A stretch of 64,000 nt of DNA from an uncultured Methanosarcinales archaeon. GTDB lineage: Archaea; Halobacteriota; Methanosarcinia; Methanotrichales; Methanotrichaceae. Shown in pieces: positions 372 to 18,586 of this stretch (position 1 is its first letter; the number at the start of each line of letters is the position of its first letter). A program made the translations under genes and the position numbers. The notes beneath the pieces were generated by a model that saw only the letters and a list, made by a program, of their open reading frames with translations, was not told the origin of the DNA and made no database searches. The DNA lies in contig CAWJKV010000018.1 of NCBI GenBank assembly GCA_963843555.1, positions 32,001 through 96,000 of the forward strand. Direction: 5' to 3'.

Positions 372-1970
372 ATGAACGATAAATATCCCGGCTGTGATGT
401 CCTTCTTACGGGCTATGAAGATCATGAAAACCTGGGGCTGCGCTACATCGCCGCGTACCTCAGGGCGCATGGCATCAGAGCAGGGATGGAGCCCATGACC
501 AGGTCCTCGAACGACGACCTGATGGAGAGGATAAAAAGGGACAGTCCAAAGATAGTAGGGTTTTCCCTCATATTCCAGGGGATGTTCACCCAGTTCAAAG
601 ACCTCATCGGGCGGTTAAGAGATGAGGGCATTCGAGCCCACTTCACAATGGGAGGCCACTTCCCGACGCTGGACTACGAGAGAACTCTCGTACTGATGCC
701 TGGACTCGACACAGTTGTGCGTCATGAGGGCGAGGAGACGCTCCTCGAGCTTTACGAGAAGATCGACCGACCGGACCTCTGGCCGCAGATAAAAGGGCTG
801 GCATGGAGGCGTGGTGGAAAGATAGAGGCATCAGAGCCACGACCACTCATAGAGAACCTGGATCTGTTGCCTTTTCCGGTTAGAGATGCCGAGATGAAAA
901 CTCATATAGGAATGCCTGCAGCATCTATCCTATCGAGCCGGGGATGCAATTTTGACTGCAGCTTCTGCAGCATCCGCAGGTTCTATGGAAGCGCACCTGG
1001 CCCTCTCCGGCGCTCCCGATCTGCCAAGAACGTGGCAGACGAGATGGAGACCCTCTACGAAAATGGGGCCCGCATCTTCGACTTCAAGGATGACGACTTC
1101 GCTATGAAGGGCCGGTCGAGGAGCCGATGGATAGAGGACCTTGCGGGGGAGCTGGAGAGAAGGTCCCTTTCTGATGACATAATCCTGAAGGTAAGCTGCC
1201 GGATAGATGAGATCGAGAGCGAAGCGCTGCAGAGAATGAAAGAGATAGGCCTTGGTATGGTCTACCTGGGTATAGAGTCAGGCTCGGAGGGTGGTCTGAA
1301 GAGCTTTAACAAGCATTACGGCGTCGGCGAGATCCGCGAGACACTGCAGATCCTCCAGGCTATCCAGATGGGTTTTGAGTACGGCTTCATGATCATCGAG
1401 CCCTCTTCGAGCTTTGATTCCATCAGGGAGAACATCTCTTTTCTCCAGGAGCTGTGCAGGGGCGGTAGGGTCGTCGCCCATTTCGCCAGGACCTATCCCT
1501 ATGTCGGGACGGCTGTGGCTGCACGCCTCAAAGCGGAGGGAAGGCTTAAGGGAACTATAGACTACCCCGACTACAGCTACCTCGACGGCAGGATCGACCT
1601 CTTCGAGAGGTTCTTGAATAGGGCCTTTGGCCGATTTCTCTTCGAGACGCAAGGGCTCGTGAACCAGATACAAAACTCCTTCTGGAATGCTCTGCTCCTG
1701 CAGAGATTCGGCAGAGATTCCTACGATGTGGAGGGCTACACGAAGTACCTGATGATGCTCACGGAGAGGTGCAACAATTCTACACTGCTGGCTCTCTCGA
1801 GGGCAGTGGGCTACATGGAGGAGAGAAGCGAGGTCGAGATCCTGCGAGACTGGAAGGAGATGGAACTTGTCATCCAGGAAGTGCTGTTGGCCCAGTCCGG
1901 AATTGAGAAGCAACTGGACGTTCTGAACAGCACATATCACACCATGCCGGAGTTCTGGAAAGGGGTATAG
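372..1970 (+). CDS. Cobalamin-binding radical SAM enzyme (class B-like)
   Basis: N-terminal B12-binding domain (ENLGLRYIAAYL, IVGFS, GGHFPT, HEGEE) and SRGCNFDCSFC CxxxCxxC motif. Confidence 0.9.
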   Translation: MNDKYPGCDVLLTGYEDHENLGLRYIAAYLRAHGIRAGMEPMTRSSNDDLMERIKRDSPKIVGFSLIFQGMFTQFKDLIGRLRDEGIRAHFTMGGHFPTLDYERTLVLMPGLDTVVRHEGEETLLELYEKIDRPDLWPQIKGLAWRRGGKIEASEPRPLIENLDLLPFPVRDAEMKTHIGMPAASILSSRGCNFDCSFCSIRRFYGSAPGPLRRSRSAKNVADEMETLYENGARIFDFKDDDFAMKGRSRSRWIEDLAGELERRSLSDDIILKVSCRIDEIESEALQRMKEIGLGMVYLGIESGSEGGLKSFNKHYGVGEIRETLQILQAIQMGFEYGFMIIEPSSSFDSIRENISFLQELCRGGRVVAHFARTYPYVGTAVAARLKAEGRLKGTIDYPDYSYLDGRIDLFERFLNRAFGRFLFETQGLVNQIQNSFWNALLLQRFGRDSYDVEGYTKYLMMLTERCNNSTLLALSRAVGYMEERSEVEILRDWKEMELVIQEVLLAQSGIEKQLDVLNSTYHTMPEFWKGV

Positions 1971-1981
1971 AGATCTAGATT

Positions 1982-3335
1982 TTAAGGTCCTGGGATCTGA
2001 GGTTTAAGAGTCCAGGTCGGACAGCCTTCGATTACTACCTTTGGAGGAACGACCCTGAACAGCTCGCCTGTCTTCTGGCTGAGGGAGTAGAACCTGTAGA
2101 GCATCTCGACCTGAGCCTGGACGATATCTGTAAATGGTATGCCCACCCCATCCGGGAAGTAGTCTGCTCTCTTCTCATACAGCTCCGTTCCTGGCAGAAT
2201 GTCCAGGACATTGGGAAGCACTCTCGCCGAGGGCCTGGCCTCGTCTATGAACTGGAGGATCTGCCCGAGGGATTCGACAGTCTCACCCGGAAGCCCGAGG
2301 ATGAAGGAGCAGTGGGTCTTTATCCCCATCTCCTCGACCATGCGCACGATCTGCTTTGCCTGTTCTATGGAGAAGTCCTTTCGAATAGTGTCGAGGACCT
2401 TCTGGGAGGCGGATTCTATCCCGAAGAAGATCTCCTCGCACCCGGCATCCTTCATCGTCCCGACGAGGTCTTTGGAGAGGAGGTCTATTCTCGTGCTGCA
2501 CCCCCACTTAACGGGCACCTGCCTTCTCTTCATCTCGCTGCAGAGCCCCTCGACGCGATCCTTGCGCATGGTGAAGTTGTCATCCACGAAGGAGACGTTG
2601 TTTATCTTATACTTCTCCACGAGGTATTCAATCTCGTCCACGACCCTTGAGTTATCTCTGACCCGGTACTTCCTGCCGTGCAGGGATGCAGTCGAGCAGA
2701 AGATGCAGTTGAAGGGACAGCCCCTGGTGGTGATGACGGGCATGCACCTCACAGCGCCATTGCCGATGTAGGCCTCGGGCGTTGGATCGAGAAGGTGGTA
2801 CGCAGGAAAGGGGAGGCTGTCCAGATCTTCCATCCTCTCCCGCAGAGGCGTCGATACTATCCGGCTGCCGTCTCTGTAGGATATGCCGAGCACGTCTGTG
2901 GGAGTCCGGCCGCCTTCGAGGCTTTCTGCAATCTCAGTGAGGGCGTGCTCACCTTCATACCGGACAACAATATCGACTTCCGGCACTGATTTGAGGATCT
3001 CCTCGTGGGTGAATGTGGCATGCACGCCGCCCATGACGATTTTTATGCCGGGATCGTATGACTTTACTGCCTTCGCCACATCGACTGCATTTTTGTAGTT
3101 GGAAGAAAAGGATGTGATGCCGACGATATCCGGTTGGAACTGGGCAAGCCTCTTATTGAGGTCTCCGGGATGAAGGTTGAGCATGTCCATGTCCAGGATC
3201 CGGGCTAGAGAAGCCAGCCTCATCGAGGTATGCCGCAATGTAGCCCAGTCCTAAAGGAATACTTGCGATCTTCATGTAGCCTAAAGGTATCCTGCCGCCG
3301 GTCCAGTAATGTGGGTTGATGAGGAGGATCTTCAA
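1982..3335 (-). CDS. Cobalamin-binding radical SAM enzyme; frameshift near 3205 splits the N-terminus
   Basis: ORF 3153-3335 gives MKILLINP..PLGLGYIAAYL and ORF 1982-3238 continues RILDMD..GGVHAT..TRGCPFNCIFC. Confidence 0.9.
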
Positions 3336-3339
3336 AAAA

Positions 3340-3813
3340 TCACCCGGTTATATCCACGAGGTCGAGCTCCTCCAGGAGGAGAAGAAAGGAGAAGAGATCC
3401 CTTGTGAGAACGCTGCTCTGGACATTCGGCCAGAGGGTCTCAAGATCCGAGATGATGGTGCTTACACTCTTCTCGCCATCGCAGAGCCTGCAGACCTCGG
3501 ATCCCGTGCTGTTGATGAAGAAAGGAATGTAGGTGTCCGGGTGTATGCCCACGACCTGGCTGCCGCCGTCGATCCAGTACTTTCCGTGCCTTCTCACAGG
3601 ATGCTTGCCTGCGAACTCATCAAATCTGATGGTGATCCCCACACCGTCATCGGGGAAAGAGACCTGACAGTCGATCATCTTCTCCTGAGCAAGGACCTCG
3701 CCAATTCTCACCGCAAGCTCAGTCTTGATGTCTCCGGCATTCTTCGATCTTAAGGGAAAGATGGTTGCCACTGCAGGAGGGTCGTACTCAACGTCTGGGA
3801 GCACTCTTTTCAC
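3340..3813 (-). CDS. PqqD/RiPP recognition element (RRE) domain protein with N-terminal extension
   Basis: C-terminal FFINSTGSEVCRLCDGEKSVSTIISDL..LTRDLFSFLLLLEELDLV fits the PqqD winged-helix pattern (lN.tg..iw.l.DG..sv..i...L......D...fl..L....lv). Confidence 0.8.
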   Translation of the reverse strand: MKRVLPDVEYDPPAVATIFPLRSKNAGDIKTELAVRIGEVLAQEKMIDCQVSFPDDGVGITIRFDEFAGKHPVRRHGKYWIDGGSQVVGIHPDTYIPFFINSTGSEVCRLCDGEKSVSTIISDLETLWPNVQSSVLTRDLFSFLLLLEELDLVDITG

Positions 3814-3829: not shown

Positions 3830-4222
3830 TCAGAAGGTCGTTTCGCGGAAGCAAGGCGCCGGGTCTACGATCACCGTCGTCCAGGGCTTTATTCTGATGG
3901 GTGCAATGATCGGGTTGATGACGATGCTCGACCACTGCGGGTAGTATCTGTCTATATCCTCGGCCGGGATATTCTTCAGGCTCTCTGTGACGAGGGCCGT
4001 GACCTTCTCCTTCAAGTCTATGGCTGCGTTCAGCCTTTCTTCAGGGTCGCTGTTTGCGGCCTTGACGTAAAGCTTTGCAACTTTCTGCATGAGCTCTTTG
4101 TTATCGGCCATCATGTTCATGATAGCTGACATCGTCTTGAGCTGGCGGACCTGCTCGCTTGTGACCTTGAAGTCGGGCAGCTTTCGCGCCGCCATCTTTT
4201 CAGGGGCATCTTCTTTTGGCAT
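3830..4222 (-). CDS. Hypothetical 130-aa protein, putative RiPP precursor peptide
   Basis: First gene of the precursor-RRE-rSAM unit (gaps 16 and 4 bp); charged helical N-terminus and Ile/Val/Pro/Trp-rich repeated C-terminus. Confidence 0.55.
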   Translation of the reverse strand: MPKEDAPEKMAARKLPDFKVTSEQVRQLKTMSAIMNMMADNKELMQKVAKLYVKAANSDPEERLNAAIDLKEKVTALVTESLKNIPAEDIDRYYPQWSSIVINPIIAPIRIKPWTTVIVDPAPCFRETTF

Positions 4223-4244
4223 AGAAGTATAATAGGCGGCGATA

Positions 4245-4286
4245 ACTTAAATTGTTTCTTGTATTTGAAATATGTATTTGAAATAC
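4245..4286 (-). promoter_or_regulatory. Putative TATA/BRE with adjacent tandem palindromic operator upstream of the precursor gene
   Basis: Minus strand AAGAAACAATTTAAGTT about 25-30 nt upstream of the ATG at 4222; TGTATTTGAAATA repeated at 4260-4272 and 4273-4285. Confidence 0.5.
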
Positions 4287-4333
4287 GTAATTGAGATTAG
4301 GTCGTGTGTGTAATGGTTTCCAATTAGCCTCGA

Positions 4334-4696
4334 TCACAAGAAAGTTATCTCAACAGGATCGCCTTCTTTCAGACCCAAAGCCCGGCGAAGTTGCACGGGC
4401 GCTATGACCTCCACCAAATCCGCTGGATAGCGGCTCCGCTCGGGCCGGACCACGGCGGCCTCGATGCCGTTCAGTCTGATGCGATAGCATTTGCACTCGC
4501 CAAAGCTCCGGCCCTCTTCCTGGAAGCCCTCGATCCGAATCGCCTGCAGCTCCGCCGGGAAAGGCTCCTCCAGCAGCACGTTCAGGGTGCCTGGGAAGGG
4601 GACAAAGCCCAGGTGCTGCAAGAACTGGCGGCTGTAGCCCTCACGGGATATGAAGTACTGGCCCTGACCCAGGCCCGCTGCAATTTTTCCGCGCAT
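4334..4696 (-). CDS. ribK: CTP-dependent riboflavin kinase (DUF120)
   Basis: GLGQGQYF, PFPGTLN, VVRPERS..EVIAPVQLR motifs. Confidence 0.9.
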   Translation of the reverse strand: MRGKIAAGLGQGQYFISREGYSRQFLQHLGFVPFPGTLNVLLEEPFPAELQAIRIEGFQEEGRSFGECKCYRIRLNGIEAAVVRPERSRYPADLVEVIAPVQLRRALGLKEGDPVEITFL

Positions 4697-4715: not shown

Positions 4716-4940
4716 TTAGATGAGATCTTGTAGTTCATCTCGACTTATATCCGCTTCTTTAAGAATTTTGCATAAGAGTTTTTTAGGTATATCATAACCG
4801 TGAAATGGAACTACCGTTACTAATTCTTTCTTATTATTATAGTATGTGTGATGGCTTCCAAGAATTCTTATTAAAGCAAATCCATCCTTTTCCAGGGCCT
4901 TTGCAAGTTCCTGAGGGGAGACGGATGGCAACTTAGGCAT
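4716..4940 (-). CDS. hicA: HicA-family mRNA interferase toxin
   Basis: MPKLPSVS..LEKDGF..GSHH..VVPFH..DIP..IL..A pattern. Confidence 0.88.
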   Translation of the reverse strand: MPKLPSVSPQELAKALEKDGFALIRILGSHHTYYNNKKELVTVVPFHGYDIPKKLLCKILKEADISRDELQDLI

Positions 4941-5166
4941 GAGCTTCAACTACTACTGTGTATTCGAATGTTCCTTCTTCCGTTGGAATTTCTTTTCCCA
5001 GGTCATGCAAGGTTTCAATATATACTTCTATGGCCTCTTTTGCCATCTCTACGGCTTCTTCCACAGTTTTTCCGAAGGTATTGCATCCTGGAAGGGTAGG
5101 TACCGAAGCGATATAAACACCTTCTTCCGGATCTTTTTTTATTATTACACGGTATTTCAGGGACAT
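4933..5166 (-). CDS. hicB: HicB-family antitoxin
   Basis: YIASVPTLPGCNTFGKTVEEAVEMAKEAI; overlaps the hicA start. Confidence 0.9.
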   Translation of the reverse strand: MSLKYRVIIKKDPEEGVYIASVPTLPGCNTFGKTVEEAVEMAKEAIEVYIETLHDLGKEIPTEEGTFEYTVVVEAHA

Positions 5167-5204
5167 AATCAATCCATCTATTGATCGATCTTGTATATCT
5201 ACAT

Positions 5205-7607: not shown

Positions 7608-8849
7608 TCAAACTCCTGGCACAGCCAGGCAACCCTGCAGAGCCGACGCAGCGGCGGTGGCCGGGCTCGCCAGATAAACCAGTCCGCCTTTGCCCATCCT
7701 TCCCGGGAAGTTCCGATTAGAGGTAGAGACGCAGACCTCCCCCTCACTCAAAACACCCATATGCGCTCCCAGACACGGCCCGCATCCCGGAGGACCGACC
7801 ATAGCCCCTGCTTCCACCAGCGTCTGGATGATTCCGCATTGCAAGGCCTCCAGCAGAACCTCTCGCGAGGCGGGAATGACCAGGGTTCTGGCTTTGACCT
7901 GTTTTCCCTTCAGGACCCTGGCCGCCACCTCCAGGTCTTCCAATCTCCCGTTGGTGCAGGTGCCGATGAATACCTGGTCGACTTCAAGGCCCGCCAGCTC
8001 TGAAACGGGCCGAACATTGTCCACCCGAAAGGGCACCGCCACCTGGGGCTCAAGATCGGTTATGTCATAATCGTATTCATAATCGTATGAACCAGGATCG
8101 GAGTGCACGGGCGTATAAGGCTGGCGCGCCCGGCCCGCGAGCCACTCTTCAGTCTTCTCGTCGGGCGGAACCATTGTTGCCTTGGCCCCCATCTCCACGC
8201 CCAGATTGCAGAGCGTCATCCTTCCCGAAATGCTCAGGGCCTCGACTGCAGGGCCGAGATACTCCACGGCTTTGTAGGTCGCCCCGTCTGCGCCCAGATC
8301 TCCAATCACCATGAGAGCTATATCCTTAGCAGAGACAAATGGCGCAAGCCGTCCGGCTACTCGCACGGCTATCGTCTCCGGCACCTTGAACCAGAGCCGG
8401 CCGCACGAATAGATCTCGGCCATATCCGTTGCCCCCACTCCCGTGCCGAAAGCCCCAAAGGCGCCATAGGTGCAGGAATGCGAATCGGCACCAACTACCA
8501 GCAAGCCCGGCAGTGCAAATCCCTGCTCCGGGAAGACCTGATGACATACCCCCCAGCCACAGTCGAAGAAGTTCGAGATCTTCTGCTCCTTTGCCCAGGC
8601 TCGCACCTCTTCTTGCAACTCAGCTGTGGTCTCATTGTTGGCGGGAACAATGTGGTCGAAGGGTACCACCAACCTTTCCGGGTCCCAAACCTCGACCGAT
8701 CCCATCTCCCGGAAGGCTTTGATGGCCAGTACTGAAGTCCCATCATGGGACATGGCATAATCTACGCCTGCCTCAACGATCTCCCCCGGCTCCACCATCC
8801 TGGCAGAGCCGGAGGCCCGCGAAAAAATTTTCTGGCTTATTGTCGCCAC
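7608..8849 (-). CDS. Homoaconitase / 3-isopropylmalate dehydratase large subunit (HacA/LeuC family)
   Basis: [45 protein letters not shown]. Confidence 0.9.
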
Positions 8850-8892
8850 ATTCGTCAGCCTCAGCGATATCACGAAATGGCGATTCTCTCTC

Positions 8893-10762
8893 TTAAGTTC
8901 GACGCTTGCACTGGATATCTTCATCGGACGGCATCATATAAGCTATGTCGTCTGCTGGATGGCGGTACAGCCTGGAGCCAAGCCTCTTTTGGTCCAGGAT
9001 ATGCCCGATCAGGCCGATGCTGCGACCGAGCGCAAATAGCCCATTCAGATAACCCAACCGCACGACCTCATCGATCTCCTCTTTGGTGAAAGCACCGCAT
9101 GAGGTCATCAGATCAATAAAGAGAATGCCGATGCAGCCGTCTACATTCAGGATCAGATTCCCCTTCTTGGCTGTGGTTAGCTCTTCCACCTGCAGGGCAT
9201 AGTTGAGAAGCTCCGTGCTGGGGAAATTCGCCCGGGCATAACTTATGAGCAGTTGGACCCGCTTGTCGGGGTTCTTGACGCTCTTGATCTTGTGGCCGAT
9301 GCCAGGAATGTTGATGCCCTTCTTCTTCATCTCTTTCACGAACTGCTCGGGAGCAAGATCAGTCTCGCGAGCGTGCTTGAACTCGCGGGCTGCATCATCG
9401 ATGGCCCCGCCAAAACGCGGACCTATGGTCAATAGGCCGCTGCATAGTGACGAGATGAGATCCTTTCCGGCACACGAGGCCACAATGGCATTATGAGCCC
9501 CGGATACGGCCGGACCGTGGTCCGCCACGATCTGAAGGACCAGTTCGATGAAATGAGAGGCATAGTCCGGCAGCTCCTTCTTGAACCAGAGCAGGCCAAC
9601 AACCCCTCCGATGCCCATCTTCTGGCCCAGAACATCGGAGAGCTTCTTGCCCGCATAGAGCACCTCTTCGCCGCTGTCATCGGAGACGGTGCAGATGAAG
9701 GTGGTGGGCTTGCGAATATCGCCCGATGCAAGCGCTTTGCTGTAGTCGCTGGGAATTTTGGGAACCTCGGGCTCTTCAAATTGCAGAACCACGCCTTTGG
9801 CCAGCAGCATCTCGTATACACGGCGCACAGTCTCGCCATAGTCATCGAATGATGTCAGGCACATAAGCTCCCGCCTCGCGGAAAGCATCGTTCTTGGCCT
9901 GAGCGGTCTCCTTGTGAGAATCGGCCTTGGCACCGGCATGGCCGAACTGAACGCTGGCCGGCAGGAACGGCGAGCAGGTACCTGTTACCCATGCTACCAG
10001 CGGCTTTTTGATCTTTCCCTCTTTCAGGGCCTGAATGATCTTATACTCGTCTTCGCCGCCCAGTTCGCCAAGACAGGCAATCATCTTGATGGCAGGGTTT
10101 TGTTCGTAACGCAGGATGTGGTCGAGCAAGGTCGATCCTGGATAGCGATCTCCTCCGATGGCCACTCCTTCGTAAATGCCGTCCGAATTTCTGGAGATGA
10201 TGTTGAAGGCCTCGTTGAGCATGCCTCCCGATTTGGAGACGAAACCTACACATCCCGGCCGGTAGAGCTTGGAGGCGATGATATTCTCGATGGTCCCTGC
10301 AGTATTGCCGATACGGAAGGCCCCCGCGGTCATGCCGCCCACTGTGGCCGGACCGATGACGATCTTATGGAGCTCTCTGGCTGTGGCACTCATGACACGA
10401 GACTGCCTCTCCGGCACGCCCTCCGCAATTACGGCCACGGTTCGAATGGTCTTCTCCTGCAATGCCTCCATGGTGGTCTCGAAGGCGGAACGGTGACTGG
10501 CAAAGTTCACCATTACATCGGCTTCTGGATAAGCCTTGGCCGCCAGCGAGATGGTCTTATACATGGGCAGAATGATCTCTTTAGTTCCCCAGAATGCCTT
10601 ATGAATGCCGGCTCTGCTGGGATTGATTATGGCAGAGATGCTAGGCGATTCACGTTTGCAGATGTAGTCGAAGTCCAGCATGCGCTGGATGGCATTGGTC
10701 TGATAGCCGTAGACGAATGCTTTGGTGTCTTTATCAAAGAGAACGTATTCTTTCCTGCTCAT
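8893..10762 (-). CDS. aclA: ATP citrate lyase subunit A; frameshift near 9850-9860
   Basis: CoA-binding/SCS-alpha domain (SKSGGM.NE, QFGHAGA) in 9842-10762 joined to the citrate synthase-like domain ([21 protein letters not shown]) in 8893-9939. Confidence 0.92.
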
Positions 10763-12140: not shown

Positions 12141-13140
12141 ATGAAGTGTCCTGCTTGCGGTATGACCTGTGTTGAGCCGGCAGAGGAAGTCCTGGCGGGG
12201 ATTGAGCAAAGGTATCTTGCCTGCTGCAATTGCCCGCCTGAGCCGAATTTGCACAAAACTCTGTCCCTGAAGAATCTACCCGAAAAGATAGAACGGTGCC
12301 AGTCGTGCGGCAGAGCAACGCTGGATGCCGTAATGCTCGATGCGTTGAGAGTTCTGAAAGAGTTTGGTCTGCGCGACGATATGGATAACCTGCGAAGCGT
12401 TGGCTCGCCGCTTATAGGGGTGGGCTATCCCCTGGCCTATTCGCCCCGCCTTGGCCAGAGGAGCCTGATGATCTCCGGTGAACGGCTCTCTGTTGAGGCT
12501 GCCGAGGCGATGCTGGAGAGAATTCCGGAGATCAAAGGAGTAATACTCTCCAGGGGGGTTCCGGGCATATGCCAATCAGGGACAGAGCCCCTGGAGAACG
12601 TTCTTCTGGCGGGCTGCGACCTGCGCGCCGACATCTGCCAGAGCCTCTTTGGGGAGCTGGTCATCTACAAGAGCCAGTCAAAAATCCATATCGAGTTTTC
12701 CAGGCAGAGCGCCCCCAAGATGAGGATCATTGAGGAGCTAAGCCTGGCCGGCAAGGCTTGCGAGGTAGTGGATGGGCTCTCAGGCCCCGGAACTCTGGGG
12801 CTGATGTGCGCCCTGGCGGGAGCCAAGCGTGTGGTTCTGAATGACGCCTGGCTTCCTGCAGTGCAAAATGTCCTCCTCAATCTGGAAGCCAACCGCAGCC
12901 TGCTCGGAATAGAGGAGATAGAGTATCTGGAAATGCCCGACGGGACTGGTGGGGAATGCTCCGGTGCTCGCAGGCCGCGCCAGCGGCCCGTGCGCGATAG
13001 AGGTCTATCATGGGGATCTGACAAGGCTATTTGAGCGAGCGCGACCTGCCGGCCTCTGCCTTATCGATCACTTCCCGGGCCAGGAGACAAAAGTTCTGGA
13101 GAAGGCCTGCAGCTGCTGCAAAGATGTAGTAATAGTATAG
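12141..13140 (+). CDS. Cys-rich N-terminus plus SAM-methyltransferase-like domain protein; frameshift near 12950
   Basis: CPAC/CCNC/CQSC; VVDGLSGPGTLGL..VVLNDAW Rossmann motif; C-terminus in ORF 12949-13140. Confidence 0.6.
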
Positions 13141-13270: not shown

Positions 13271-14345
13271 TTAAAAGCCTTTTGCTAATTGTTTCTCAGT
13301 TACAGCCGTCGGGGAAGTATGATTTATCTTCTTCACGAGATACGCCGTCGCCAGGCCGCCGATGGCGGTGAGCATCCAGAGCTGGACGAGTCTGATGAGG
13401 ATGGTCGCTGCCACTGCGATGTGCATGGGCAGACCGATGGCGGCAAAGAGGGTGCTCATCACTAATGTCCACCAATCCGACTCCACCCGGCAAGAATATG
13501 GGCAGCATCTGCAAGAATATCATAACCGCATATACCGCAAATACAGCTTGAAGCGGCACGGAAATGCCCATAGAACGGAAGACGACGACGGCCACCATGG
13601 TCATGGAGAGCCAGCCTACCAATGCCCAGAAGGTGCTGATGAAAAGGGTTCTCTTGTGCTCGACCAGCATCTTCATGGACTGATGGAATCGGTTCATTAT
13701 GCCGCTGCATTGCATCCGATCCACATTGATATGGAAGATCTTTTCGACATAGTCGATCAACTTGAAGATGATTCGCTCCAGCCAGTCGTCTGCAAAGCAG
13801 ATGCCGATGAATGTGGCATTGAGTAACAGCATGATGAGAGCAATGATGCTGCAGGTAGCCAGAACCCAGGGTGGGGCGTCGGTGGCCAGGTACAGGTAAA
13901 CCAGGCCAATCGCTGTACCCAGAAAGAAGGGTATTGCTGTGATGATTCTTGTGGCGGCAACTGTAGCTGAAGACTGATCGATTCGCGAACCTCCGTCCAG
14001 CTTTTCCAGGAAGTAGATGCGAGCCGTCTCTCCTGCGAAGGAGCCAGATGGTATGAGGTTGTTCATGAAACCGCAGGACAGGTAGATGAGAAAGAGATCC
14101 CAGATGGGCACCTTGTAATTGAACTTGAGGACAACTGCCCTCCAGGCCAGGGCATCGCAGAACACACCGAAGAGTGCCAGAATTACAGCCATGGAAAAAA
14201 GGGCAAGATCGACATTTCTGAGGCTGTCAATCACATCCTGGAAGCCCACCTGATATAGATAAAATAGATAGACGCCCATGCCTAATGCAATCAAAGCTAT
14301 TGATTTTCCTGGGCGGATCGTGGGAAGCTCTATCTCGTCGCTCAC
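13271..14345 (-). CDS. UPF0104 / lysylphosphatidylglycerol synthase TM-like (flippase-like) membrane protein; frameshift near 13460
   Basis: NNLIPSG..GE.AR, LPGGVG.VD, LIRLVQLW motifs. Confidence 0.8.
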
Positions 14346-17186: not shown

Positions 17187-17747
17187 ATGAGAAATATAAT
17201 TGTTTCAAACTATGTTACCCTTGATGGCTTCTTTGCAGGACCGAATGGAGAAATTGACTGGTTTGTCTGGGATGAAGAGATCGAACAATTCTCAAAAGAT
17301 TTTTTGGCAGGTTCGATAGACACCATCCTTTTTGGACGGGTGACTTATGAGCTGATGGCCGGCTACTGGCCTGTTACTACAGCGGAAGATCCAATCATCA
17401 CCGAAAAAATGAATAATTTACCTAAGATTGTCTTTTCAAAAACCCTGGAAAAGGCTGATTGGAGGAATACAAGGTTAATAAGAGAAATTAACAAGGATGA
17501 TATTCTAAGAATGAAAGGGCAGCCGGGTAAGGATATGGTGATTTATGGCAGTGGCAGCATTGTATCAGCTCTTACGAAATTAGGATTGATCGATGAATAT
17601 TTGATCTATGTCAATCCCATCATCCTGGGCAATGGAAAACAGCAATTCAAAGATATCACGGATAGGATAAATCTCAGGTTGATAAATAGCAAGATATTCA
17701 AATCAGGTGTCGTCTTGCTTCATTATGGTGCGATAGAGAAAGGGTAA
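17187..17747 (+). CDS. Dihydrofolate reductase / RibD C-terminal family protein
   Basis: TLDGF.AGPNG..DW, FGRVTY, GSG.IV, LIDEY.I.VNP.ILG.GK. Confidence 0.88.
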   Translation: MRNIIVSNYVTLDGFFAGPNGEIDWFVWDEEIEQFSKDFLAGSIDTILFGRVTYELMAGYWPVTTAEDPIITEKMNNLPKIVFSKTLEKADWRNTRLIREINKDDILRMKGQPGKDMVIYGSGSIVSALTKLGLIDEYLIYVNPIILGNGKQQFKDITDRINLRLINSKIFKSGVVLLHYGAIEKG

Positions 17748-17803
17748 GAAACAATTTGACCAGGTAGAATGGTTTTCCGGCAATTGTCCGATCTCAATTC
17801 TCA

Positions 17804-18586
17804 TCACTTCATCTTCTGATGTTCAGGGCAGTAGTAGCTGGTTCTCCCTCCGATCTTCTCATGCTGAAGAAGAGCGCCGTCCCTGGGGCAGGTTCCGCCC
17901 GCATAGCGATACGGCAGGAGATAGGAATCGGGCAGATTGGCAAGATTTGCCCCGGTGGAAAGGGCTGTCTTAATAACCTCCTGAATTGACGCAAAGAGGG
18001 CTTCAAGTTGCACCTCATTCAGACAGCGAGACTTGGGACAGATTCCAGCCTGAAAGAGGGCTTCGTCTGCGTAGAGGTTGCCAAGGCCCGCAAGAAGTCT
18101 CTGGTTGAGCAGTGCTGCCTTGATCAAGCCCCGTCTGCCGCTCATAATCTCTATAAAGCCATCCCGGTTGAGCTGCAGGGCGTCGGGGCCGATCTTTCGC
18201 TCTGCCAGGAAAAGGGCAGGACTTGTTGTCAATCCCACCTCGCCGAAGATCCTAGGATCATCGAAGGCCAGCCGGCGGCCGTTCTGAAAAGAGACCAGCA
18301 GGCGGGTGTGACGGGGCTTTGCCGCATGGGCCTGGAGATATACAAGCCTCCCGGTCAGGCCGAGGTGAAGCGTGAGCCAGAGATCGTCCTGCAGCATCAG
18401 AAAGAGCCTTTTTCCATGCCTTTGCACGGATAAAAACTGCTTTCCCGCCAGACTGAGCTCCAATGCCTCTGGAGAGACCCCGGAGAGGATGCGGTTGTCC
18501 AAAACTTTAGCCGCTCTGATGGGCTGGAGCAGTATTGTAGCCTCCAAATACATTCGAGCCGCCTCTACTTCAGGAAGTTCAGGCAT
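17804..18586 (-). CDS. mutM: Fpg/Nei DNA glycosylase/AP lyase
   Basis: MPELPEVE N-terminus, RHGK, HLG.TG, GLGNLYADE, C-terminal CPRDG..GGRTSYYCPEHQ zinc finger. Confidence 0.92.
   Translation of the reverse strand: MPELPEVEAARMYLEATILLQPIRAAKVLDNRILSGVSPEALELSLAGKQFLSVQRHGKRLFLMLQDDLWLTLHLGLTGRLVYLQAHAAKPRHTRLLVSFQNGRRLAFDDPRIFGEVGLTTSPALFLAERKIGPDALQLNRDGFIEIMSGRRGLIKAALLNQRLLAGLGNLYADEALFQAGICPKSRCLNEVQLEALFASIQEVIKTALSTGANLANLPDSYLLPYRYAGGTCPRDGALLQHEKIGGRTSYYCPEHQKMK

Follow-up and report, generated by a model that had tools for sequence, protein, structure and literature searches.

A candidate archaeal RiPP-type system combining a helical-leader precursor, an RRE protein and B12-dependent radical SAM enzymes

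To our knowledge, few archaeal RiPP-type systems have been characterized. In methanogens, QCMT/Mmp10 carries out B12-dependent C-methylation, acting on MCR. For RiPP pathways, the available portions of the literature describe most characterized B12-dependent radical SAM enzymes (B12-rSAMs) as C-methyltransferases, with the beta-methylation of bottromycin Pro as one instance (PMC11285071) and that of ApyA Tyr as another (PMC10635010). In the clavusporins (MpcA/MpcB/MpcC, encoded by the mpc cluster of Streptomyces clavuligerus), a B12-rSAM beta-methylates Pro, Val, Ile, and Thr within the hydrophobic core KPSVGITITVPFR (10.1101/2024.01.23.576971). The leader sequence that fills the RRE cleft in lasso systems is YxxP(xL) (PMC12710340, PMC10368454). 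For archaeal CrpA, the accessible text proposes an intact modified protein as the product, and precursors typically combine a leader that is conserved with a tail that exchanges freely, an RRE and a dedicated rSAM being encoded alongside (PMC13692751).

The window examined here is the whole 64,000-nucleotide stretch from an uncultured Methanosarcinales archaeon, and it contains a real 130-aa ORF at 3830-4222 on the minus strand. The tail on which the original prediction was built, YYPQ-WSSIVINP-IIAPIRIKP-WTTVIVDP-APCFRETTF, matches the translation of this ORF exactly. We estimate a probability of roughly 60% that the encoded protein serves as the dedicated substrate in an archaeal system of RiPP type that is so far undescribed, in which a helical leader would serve as the handle and a variable tail would be modified. 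The basis for this reading is the gene order, the split between leader and tail, the fold of the RRE protein, strict co-occurrence, and matching enzyme trees. A clustered short precursor gene, a conserved leader with a variable core, and an RRE domain, three of the features that mark a RiPP-type system, are present.

The operon, its RRE protein and its distribution

The precursor gene is followed 16 bases downstream by the gene for the PqqD/RRE protein and, four bases further, by the gene for B12-rSAM enzyme 1 (Table 1). The same order is found in the genomes G071, G049, and G565, and in G575 it is divided over two contig ends. Three of 105 genomes in the order encode the RRE protein, and the same three, with no others, encode enzyme 1; the precursor occurs in those three and in G083, where it is cut by a contig end; within the class, the precursor is present in six of 392 genomes belonging to two families, a patchy distribution. 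The RRE protein retrieved 13 metagenome loci, several of which are partial and three of which (L013, L014, and L020) represent one lineage. A B12-rSAM lies directly downstream of the RRE gene in 13/13 and the precursor directly upstream in 11/13. The two exceptions are L020, without upstream sequence, and L023, with a different peptide. At the latter locus (L023:1205-4544), an unrelated 107-aa peptide ending in RPRPRPRPP and a second rSAM, whose best profiles are SPASM-type maturases, precede the same RRE protein and an enzyme 1 that has diverged (39%).

Table 1. Features of the locus, with coordinates in the window
Feature	Coordinates	Strand	Remarks
B12-dependent radical SAM enzyme 2	372..1970	plus	532 aa; convergent to enzyme 1 across a gap of 11 bp
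B12-dependent radical SAM enzyme 1 (CX3CX2C)	1982..3335	minus	1-base insertion near 3205-3207
Stand-alone RRE/PqqD protein	3340..3813	minus	157 aa; N-terminal extension of about 70 aa and RRE domain (residues 70-157)
YDPPAV, residues 10-15 of RRE protein	3769..3786	minus	lasso-leader-like YxxPx[VI]
Precursor-like protein	3830..4222	minus	opens the operon; 130 aa, vs 132 aa in the majority of close relatives
Variable tail/putative core, residues 93-130	3833..3946	minus	rich in Trp/Tyr/Pro/Ile
D-P-A-P, residues 120-123	3854..3865	minus	proposed enzyme 2 target; overlaps end of second 8-mer
Second 8-mer WTTVIVDP	3860..3883	minus	residues 114-121; lineage-specific
First 8-mer WSSIVINP	3911..3934	minus	residues 97-104; lineage-specific
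Trp97	3932..3934	minus	sole tail position kept family-wide
Conserved leader, residues 1-92	3947..4222	minus	extended N-terminal motif, then four AlphaFold2 helices
Extended N-terminal motif of leader, R13-T21	4160-4186	minus	
AT-rich intergenic region upstream of operon	4223..4333	minus	candidate archaeal promoter

A scan of genome contigs with a single RRE sequence returned the G071 contig alone, and a phylum sample of 400 genomes gave only weak matches, to the C-terminal PqqD part. Members named by NCBI include two from Methanothrix soehngenii (AEB69170.1 and AEB69171.1), so a cultured host exists, and in Ca. Thorarchaeota the accessions of the precursor and the RRE protein are consecutive. 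Transposase-like genes, recognized by eye, flank the operon in G049 (L007:5616-7126, 17341-17970), and enzyme 2 of G565 adjoins an integrase (L048:4313-5488); such neighbours are consistent with a mobile, patchy cassette. The GC content (0.54-0.55 vs 0.515) presents no anomaly, and plasmid searches with either enzyme retrieved only matches of 25-33% identity, the one inspected being an unrelated cluster.

A scan of 24 flanking proteins revealed no shared protease or exporter, and the flanks scanned contain no C39 transporter; an MFS gene is found upstream of enzyme 2 in G000 and G071 only. The AT-rich region upstream of the operon may hold an archaeal promoter; a sigma-70 scan, which does not cover archaeal promoters, found nothing in this region. 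Directly upstream (4334-4696) is a stand-alone CTP-dependent riboflavin kinase without an HTH domain, which is shared by the query locus and G071 and not by the other loci, followed at 4716-5172 by a HicA/HicB toxin-antitoxin pair. On the opposite strand, some 6 kb upstream of its operon, G071 additionally carries an rSAM/SPASM gene (L006:215-1573) that was not seen at the other loci.

The RRE protein retrieves the Pfam PqqD family with an E-value of 2.5e-6, above the gathering score, and its predicted model superimposes on the lasso RRE TbiB1 (PDB 5V1U) with Z 11.1 and rmsd 1.9 over 84/84 aligned residues. An N-terminal [YF]xxPx[VI] is present in all 24 of the aligned RRE proteins and in 0/30 precursors. 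In the model this segment has a pLDDT of 91 and forms a beta-bridge at residues 15-16. The RRE protein's own YxxPx[VI] probably occupies its peptide cleft. The N-terminal extension was also considered as a copy of the precursor leader, which is ruled out by a profile comparison of the precursor with the RRE protein (no similarity, probability 0.5%). Complex prediction of the RRE protein with the precursor scored 0.00 twice, in runs without controls, and is counted neither for nor against binding. We lean slightly toward an arrangement in which YxxPx[VI] sits in the cleft of its own protein, so that the precursor has to push this segment out or else attach at another site by way of its helical body. 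In the literature available to us, we found no earlier case of an RRE carrying its own leader motif, and if the arrangement is as modelled, it would constitute a new mode of RRE regulation. The small supplements of PMC12710340 and PMC7470986 contained no match, and the RRE proteins described here may already be listed somewhere as unlabelled network nodes.

Conserved leaders, variable tails and the chemistry of the two enzymes

A profile search of 1.84 billion representatives yielded 24 precursor matches, 23 of them small proteins, and a word-seeded search yielded 19. We aligned 36 homologs and reduced them to 25 non-redundant sequences with less than 70% leader identity. Excluded from the set of 36 were fragments (P0005, P0006, P0080, P0082, and P0090), a sequence with an internal deletion (P0097), near-duplicates (P0001, P0112, P0114, P0115, and cluster members), and P0098, a hit of 2156 aa judged to be due to chance. 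Across the 25 homologs, leader residues 10-92 share a mean pairwise identity of 39% vs 18% for the tails. Trp accounts for 0 of 2154 leader residues and is present in 25/25 tails, the composition of which is 9.5% Trp, 8.9% Tyr, 13.5% Pro, 9.1% Ile, and 0.9% Cys. These values bear out the earlier view of the protein as precursor-like, with a leader that is long and folded and a core that varies. Neither uniform conservation along the whole length nor membership of a known non-precursor family was found, given the 39% vs 18% identity and the lack of a fitting family for the query and 30 homologs in Pfam and NCBIfam. A weak match to AvrBs1 (15.8 bits against a cut-off of 400, in 1/30 members) was treated as chance. 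Our literature search, whose scope did not extend to bioRxiv supplements and most subscription journals, returned no description of this precursor family or of the Asp-Pro family discussed below.

An AlphaFold2 model of the precursor, built from a 30-row alignment, places helices at residues 22-40, 42-56, 60-81, 87-92, and 94-106, with pLDDT below 50 from residue 107 onward, and agrees with the prediction of a long helical leader. The abrupt switch from leader to core that was also predicted holds in composition and less so in structure, because a modelled helix runs over the first 8-mer; the WSSIVINP region may still be helical and packed against the leader. Foldseek gave no match for the model at E<=0.001, and the best hit of a VIA fold search was a spidroin C-terminal domain (Z 6.5, rmsd 6.7 over 105), which we took as a generic helical bundle rather than an identity, since the matches were generic and helical throughout. 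No NHLP or Nif11 chain is among the fold matches listed, and neither the precursor (best 0.78) nor the G592 peptide described below had a usable match in the protein Atlas. As predicted, there is no GG cleavage motif, neither GG nor GA being present anywhere in the precursor; either occurs somewhere in 5/25 homologs, at positions not common between them.

One position in the tail stands apart from the general divergence. The first tail Trp falls on tail position 5, equivalent to Trp97, in 19/25 homologs and on positions 4-6 in 23/25, and Trp97 is at least 90% conserved in alignment A5. We give a little less than even odds to Trp97 itself being a methylation site, and it may instead be structural, as the AlphaFold2 helix runs over residues 94-106. 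Within the query's own lineage, a comparison of tail residues 93-126 with two close relatives counts 12 synonymous and 0 non-synonymous codon changes, from which the tail is judged to be under purifying and not diversifying selection.

The two adjacent rSAM genes named in the original prediction are both real and both of the B12 type. That prediction mentioned neither the PqqD/RRE gene that separates the precursor from enzyme 1 nor the frameshift of enzyme 1 in this assembly. Each enzyme has an N-terminal B12-binding domain and an rSAM domain with CX3CX2C (class B radical SAM), and neither has a SPASM domain or reaches a curated NCBIfam cut-off. The best NCBIfam profile for enzyme 1 is ApyD (NF050148; E 1e-68, 232 bits vs a cut-off of 750), with BchE scoring nearly the same; chemistry other than methylation is also known from B12-rSAMs. 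Among the other comparisons, TIGR04014 gives enzyme 1 a score of 115 against a cut-off of 360, TIGR03975 (rSAM_ocin_1) gives the two enzymes 129 and 52 bits vs 281.85, TIGR04428 (TsrM-type) gives the frameshifted copy of enzyme 1 46.8 bits and enzyme 2 18.7 bits vs 500, and PDB 6WTE matches the intact enzyme 1 ortholog at an E-value of only 1.5e-7. The Trp/Pro-rich tail is probably chemically modified by these two enzymes, most likely by methylation, and methyl transfer by both is inferred from family precedent only.

Since both enzymes lie outside curated families, there is room for the same substrate relationship with a different outcome, namely cross-links or other radical changes such as Trp/Tyr ring coupling. 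The tails are 18% Trp plus Tyr, W-Y occurs in 17/25 of them vs 7.1 expected (0/300 shuffles, for one of 54 pairs tested), and the non-methyltransferases BchE and AprD4 are among the top profile and PDB matches. However, the aromatic pairs keep no conserved spacing (W-W exceeds chance at no gap), neither enzyme carries a SPASM domain, and carbon methylation is the activity of most RiPP B12-rSAMs in the available account (PMC11285071). We consider cross-linking unlikely and continue to favour methylation of the tail.

A second alternative comes from the original prediction itself, which read the two 8-mers as a repeated W-[ST][ST]-[IV][IV][IV]-[ND]-P unit of modification, so that each would be recognized and modified alike. 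The 8-mers do align residue for residue, gap-free and at an offset of 17, with a BLOSUM62 score of 30 and 15/24 identical nucleotides in their coding DNA. This score was matched in 34/10,000 shuffles of the 38-aa tail (7/1,000 in the repeat run) and in 116/1,500 shuffles of the whole protein, i.e., the pair is beyond chance within the tail and marginal over the whole protein. It is also invariant among close relatives, and internal repeats matched by no more than 10/1,000 shuffles recur in 5/25 tails, for instance as an exact 14-mer duplication in P0086. Homolog tails with duplications of their own also include P0093, with an 8-mer present twice, and P0113, with several P-H-I-W-like units. Against this, only W and P are identical between the two 8-mers (2/8 residues), the repeat units of other tails are unrelated to them, and the motif is confined to 4/36 homologs (the query and three others, all at least 87% identical to it), or 1/25 non-redundant lineages. 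It is missing even in G565 and G575, the nearest relatives with the same two enzymes. The motif is thus not the recognition unit of the family, its role as a unit of modification is quite unlikely, and repeats, as far as these tails indicate, are a recurring habit and not a shared recognition code.

Enzyme 2, the D-P-[AG]-P motif and the state of the locus

Matches to enzyme 2 at E<=1e-70 were found in 13 of the 392 genomes of the class, one of which (G695, 36%) falls outside a tight clade of 12. Seven of these 12, from about four independent lineages, have a small gene with Asp-Pro motifs and a coiled coil directly upstream of enzyme 2. Enzyme 2 is linked to the operon in four others (G000, G071, G565, and G575), and in the last (G684) its locus runs into a contig edge, where a truncated helical ORF was left unscored by the profile. 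The convergent position of enzyme 2 is repeated in G565 and G575, and in G071 the gene is about 4.5 kb away. The small genes upstream belong to a second undescribed family in which Asp-Pro motifs (9/10 aligned rows) are followed by a coiled-coil follower, and this family has no match in G000, G071, G565, or G575.

The Asp-Pro loci themselves are varied. In G038 (L072:4740-6637; C50, about 7770-9640), five tandem DPAP/ADDP small genes with a common coiled-coil C-terminus lie directly upstream of the enzyme 2 ortholog, and none has a Pfam match or a meaningful NCBIfam match. The G592 peptide contains ADPAP three times, and tyrosinase-PPC and emfourin genes lie on the same strand upstream of this peptide and enzyme 2 (L078:7392-9664). 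Other Asp-Pro peptides carry GDPVD (G553, G555, and G583) or DPVRDPVN (G005 and G020). After the GDPVD peptide and enzyme 2, G555, G553, and G583 encode an astacin/matrixin-like metalloprotease and a VWA protein (L074:2570-8565, L075, L077), the only enzyme 2 context observed with a protease. Nine of 10 loci with weak matches to the Asp-Pro family, in family f2 and G016, were inspected; those in eight genomes of family f2 (L089, L091, L093-L097, and L099) are stand-alone genes for coiled-coil proteins of 76-81 aa that bear a weak relationship to the follower in the Asp-Pro family, and 1.5 kb around them contain no rSAM.

The precursor tails have D-P-[AG]-P in 4/4 genomes with an operon-linked enzyme 2, the tail ends being VDPAP (G000), VDPAP (G071), ADPGP (G565), and PDPGP (G575). 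G049, which is 99% complete, has the operon without D-P-[AG]-P and without enzyme 2, and two close relatives have degenerate motifs (GDTVP in P0075 and DQGP in P0076). Among 6,803 small open frames of the source genome, only six have D-P-[AG]-P within the last 25 residues. FastTree phylogenies with midpoint rooting join G000/G071 with G565/G575, across two families, for both enzyme 1 and enzyme 2 (support 0.91, 0.93), and the enzyme 2 clade of these four genomes groups with G038 (support 0.99). We would like to note that the pairing of D-P-[AG]-P with enzyme 2 represents one ancestral event in two sister lineages, so that 4/4 does not amount to four independent tests and is to be read as a lead rather than a statistic. 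As a strong lead, we infer an origin of enzyme 2 in the Asp-Pro system and residues 120-123 as the place where it acts. That enzyme 2 acts on D-P-[AG]-P in the tail, probably by C-methylating Asp or Pro, is the outcome we would favour over its opposite. The proposal that the two rSAMs divide the targets between them fits these data, with D-P-[AG]-P, and not the 8-mer, tracking enzyme 2.

The same evidence bears on whether the small protein is a substrate at all, or a structural or regulatory partner of the enzymes with its aromatic tail as an anchor or interaction surface. A folded helical body that reaches residue 106, the absence of a protease and of a cleavage motif, an RRE cleft that is perhaps self-occupied, and the occurrence of coiled-coil relatives of the Asp-Pro family alone, without an rSAM, in the eight f2 genomes would all suit a partner. 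Set against them are the leader/tail pattern beside an RRE and an rSAM, typical of precursors in the accessible account (PMC13692751), and the exact coincidence between linkage of enzyme 2 and the presence in the tail of the motif borne by its other partners. We therefore regard a partner role as very unlikely and keep to the reading of the protein as a substrate.

Enzyme 1 has an extra base near 3205-3207, defined relative to G071, where the intact ortholog is 456 aa long. Two further genes, at 8893-10762 and 12141-13140 in the window, are also split by apparent frameshifts and have longer open frames in G071 and G049; one is presumably an ATP-citrate-lyase-like alpha subunit, and the other is an unnamed 297-aa ORF. 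The region 13271-14345 is apparently split as well. Since other split genes lie within 10 kb, the assembly appears prone to indels, and the frameshift in enzyme 1 is probably an assembly error. A system that is real in relatives and dead in the source strain, with enzyme 1 as a pseudogene, would account for the 1-base insertion near 3207, but it is highly improbable given these further split genes and two contigs of RNA libraries from two studies, which are about 94-95% identical there, derive from relatives and not the source strain, and lack the extra base.

Proposed mechanism and relation to known systems

Taken as a working model, the conserved helical leader would act as the handle that enzyme 1 and the RRE protein engage, and enzyme 1, which is found in every locus, would place radical C-methylations on the tail. 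Its likely sites would be Trp97 or, beyond that position, residues that are aromatic, Pro, or beta-branched. In the sub-lineage of G000, G071, G565, and G575, a second B12-rSAM would have been recruited from a separate Asp-Pro-modifying system. Because no protease or exporter is conserved, release of the product by a housekeeping protease and its retention as an intact modified protein appear about equally likely. By analogy with the clavusporins, we would guess that the product is hydrophobic and either surface-active or membrane-binding. A broader view is possible and tentative: an archaeal platform for the C-methylation of peptides or proteins, ranging from Methanosarcinia to Asgard (Thorarchaeota), that unites a new helical leader fold with exchangeable Trp/Pro-rich tails, a self-gated RRE with a YxxPx[VI] pseudo-leader, and a portable D-P-A/G-P tag, the second B12-rSAM having moved with the tag from an unrelated, follower-type precursor family.

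What appears to be new is two undescribed precursor families and two unusual features, namely an RRE with its own leader motif and the association of D-P-[AG]-P with enzyme 2. The proposal is directly testable, as it names two enzymes, a pair of unrelated substrate families, and a single short candidate target (D-P-A/G-P). If it is correct, peptide engineering could make use of an enzyme that accepts tails only 18% alike and of a portable tag of four residues.

Among described systems, the clavusporins are the best functional analogue, as their core resembles the second half of the query tail in composition. They differ in that MpcA has 39 aa and MpcB has CX7CX2C, in contrast to the CX3CX2C of both enzymes here, and in that the mpc cluster includes a DUF5825 partner, an S9 peptidase, and a transporter; the available part of that report names no stand-alone RRE (10.1101/2024.01.23.576971). 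By their CX3CX2C motif and their sub-cut-off scores, the enzymes are not members of the clavusporin/rSAM_ocin_1 (TIGR03975) group. Proteusins (NHLP leader; PoyB/PoyC) and Nif11 precursors, to which the original prediction had compared this protein, are similar in their long structured leader, beta-branched core, and two B12-rSAMs per cluster, as far as the accessible texts describe them (PMC12537861, PMC11285071). In contrast, the present loci have no Gly-Gly end, C39 transporter, or epimerase, and PoyC has CX7CX2C. No NHLP or Nif11 profile in Pfam or NCBIfam matches the query (E<=0.1) or the 30 homologs (E<=0.01), in agreement with the suggestion of a distinct leader class.

ApyD of the aminopyruvatide pathway, which also contains an RRE, is likewise a B12-rSAM and beta-methylates an aromatic residue, according to the accessible description (PMC10635010), but its profile spans 645 positions vs the 456 aa of enzyme 1, and the loci here include no P450, MNIO, or methyltransferase. 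The lasso RREs share the TbiB1 fold and the YxxPxL motif, as the available texts present them (PMC10368454, PMC12710340), whereas here the motif is on the N-terminus of the RRE protein itself and not on the precursor (0/30), and no lasso cyclase or B2 protease is found in the loci. QCMT is comparable as an archaeal enzyme of B12-dependent C-methylation on a protein, and differs in its MCR substrate and in the score of enzyme 1 against TIGR04014 (115 of 360). Crp of Methanococcus voltae also represents archaeal radical-SAM modification of protein-sized substrates with use of an RRE, yet the portion of its description available to us concerns a Cys-directed SPASM enzyme (PMC13692751), and the tails here are 0.9% Cys. 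Unlike Cys-directed Crp, the present system predicts B12-radical chemistry on tails containing Trp, Pro, and Asp. The system would work like a class B rSAM RiPP pathway and, by the features tested, is not a proteusin, Nif11, clavusporin, or lasso system.
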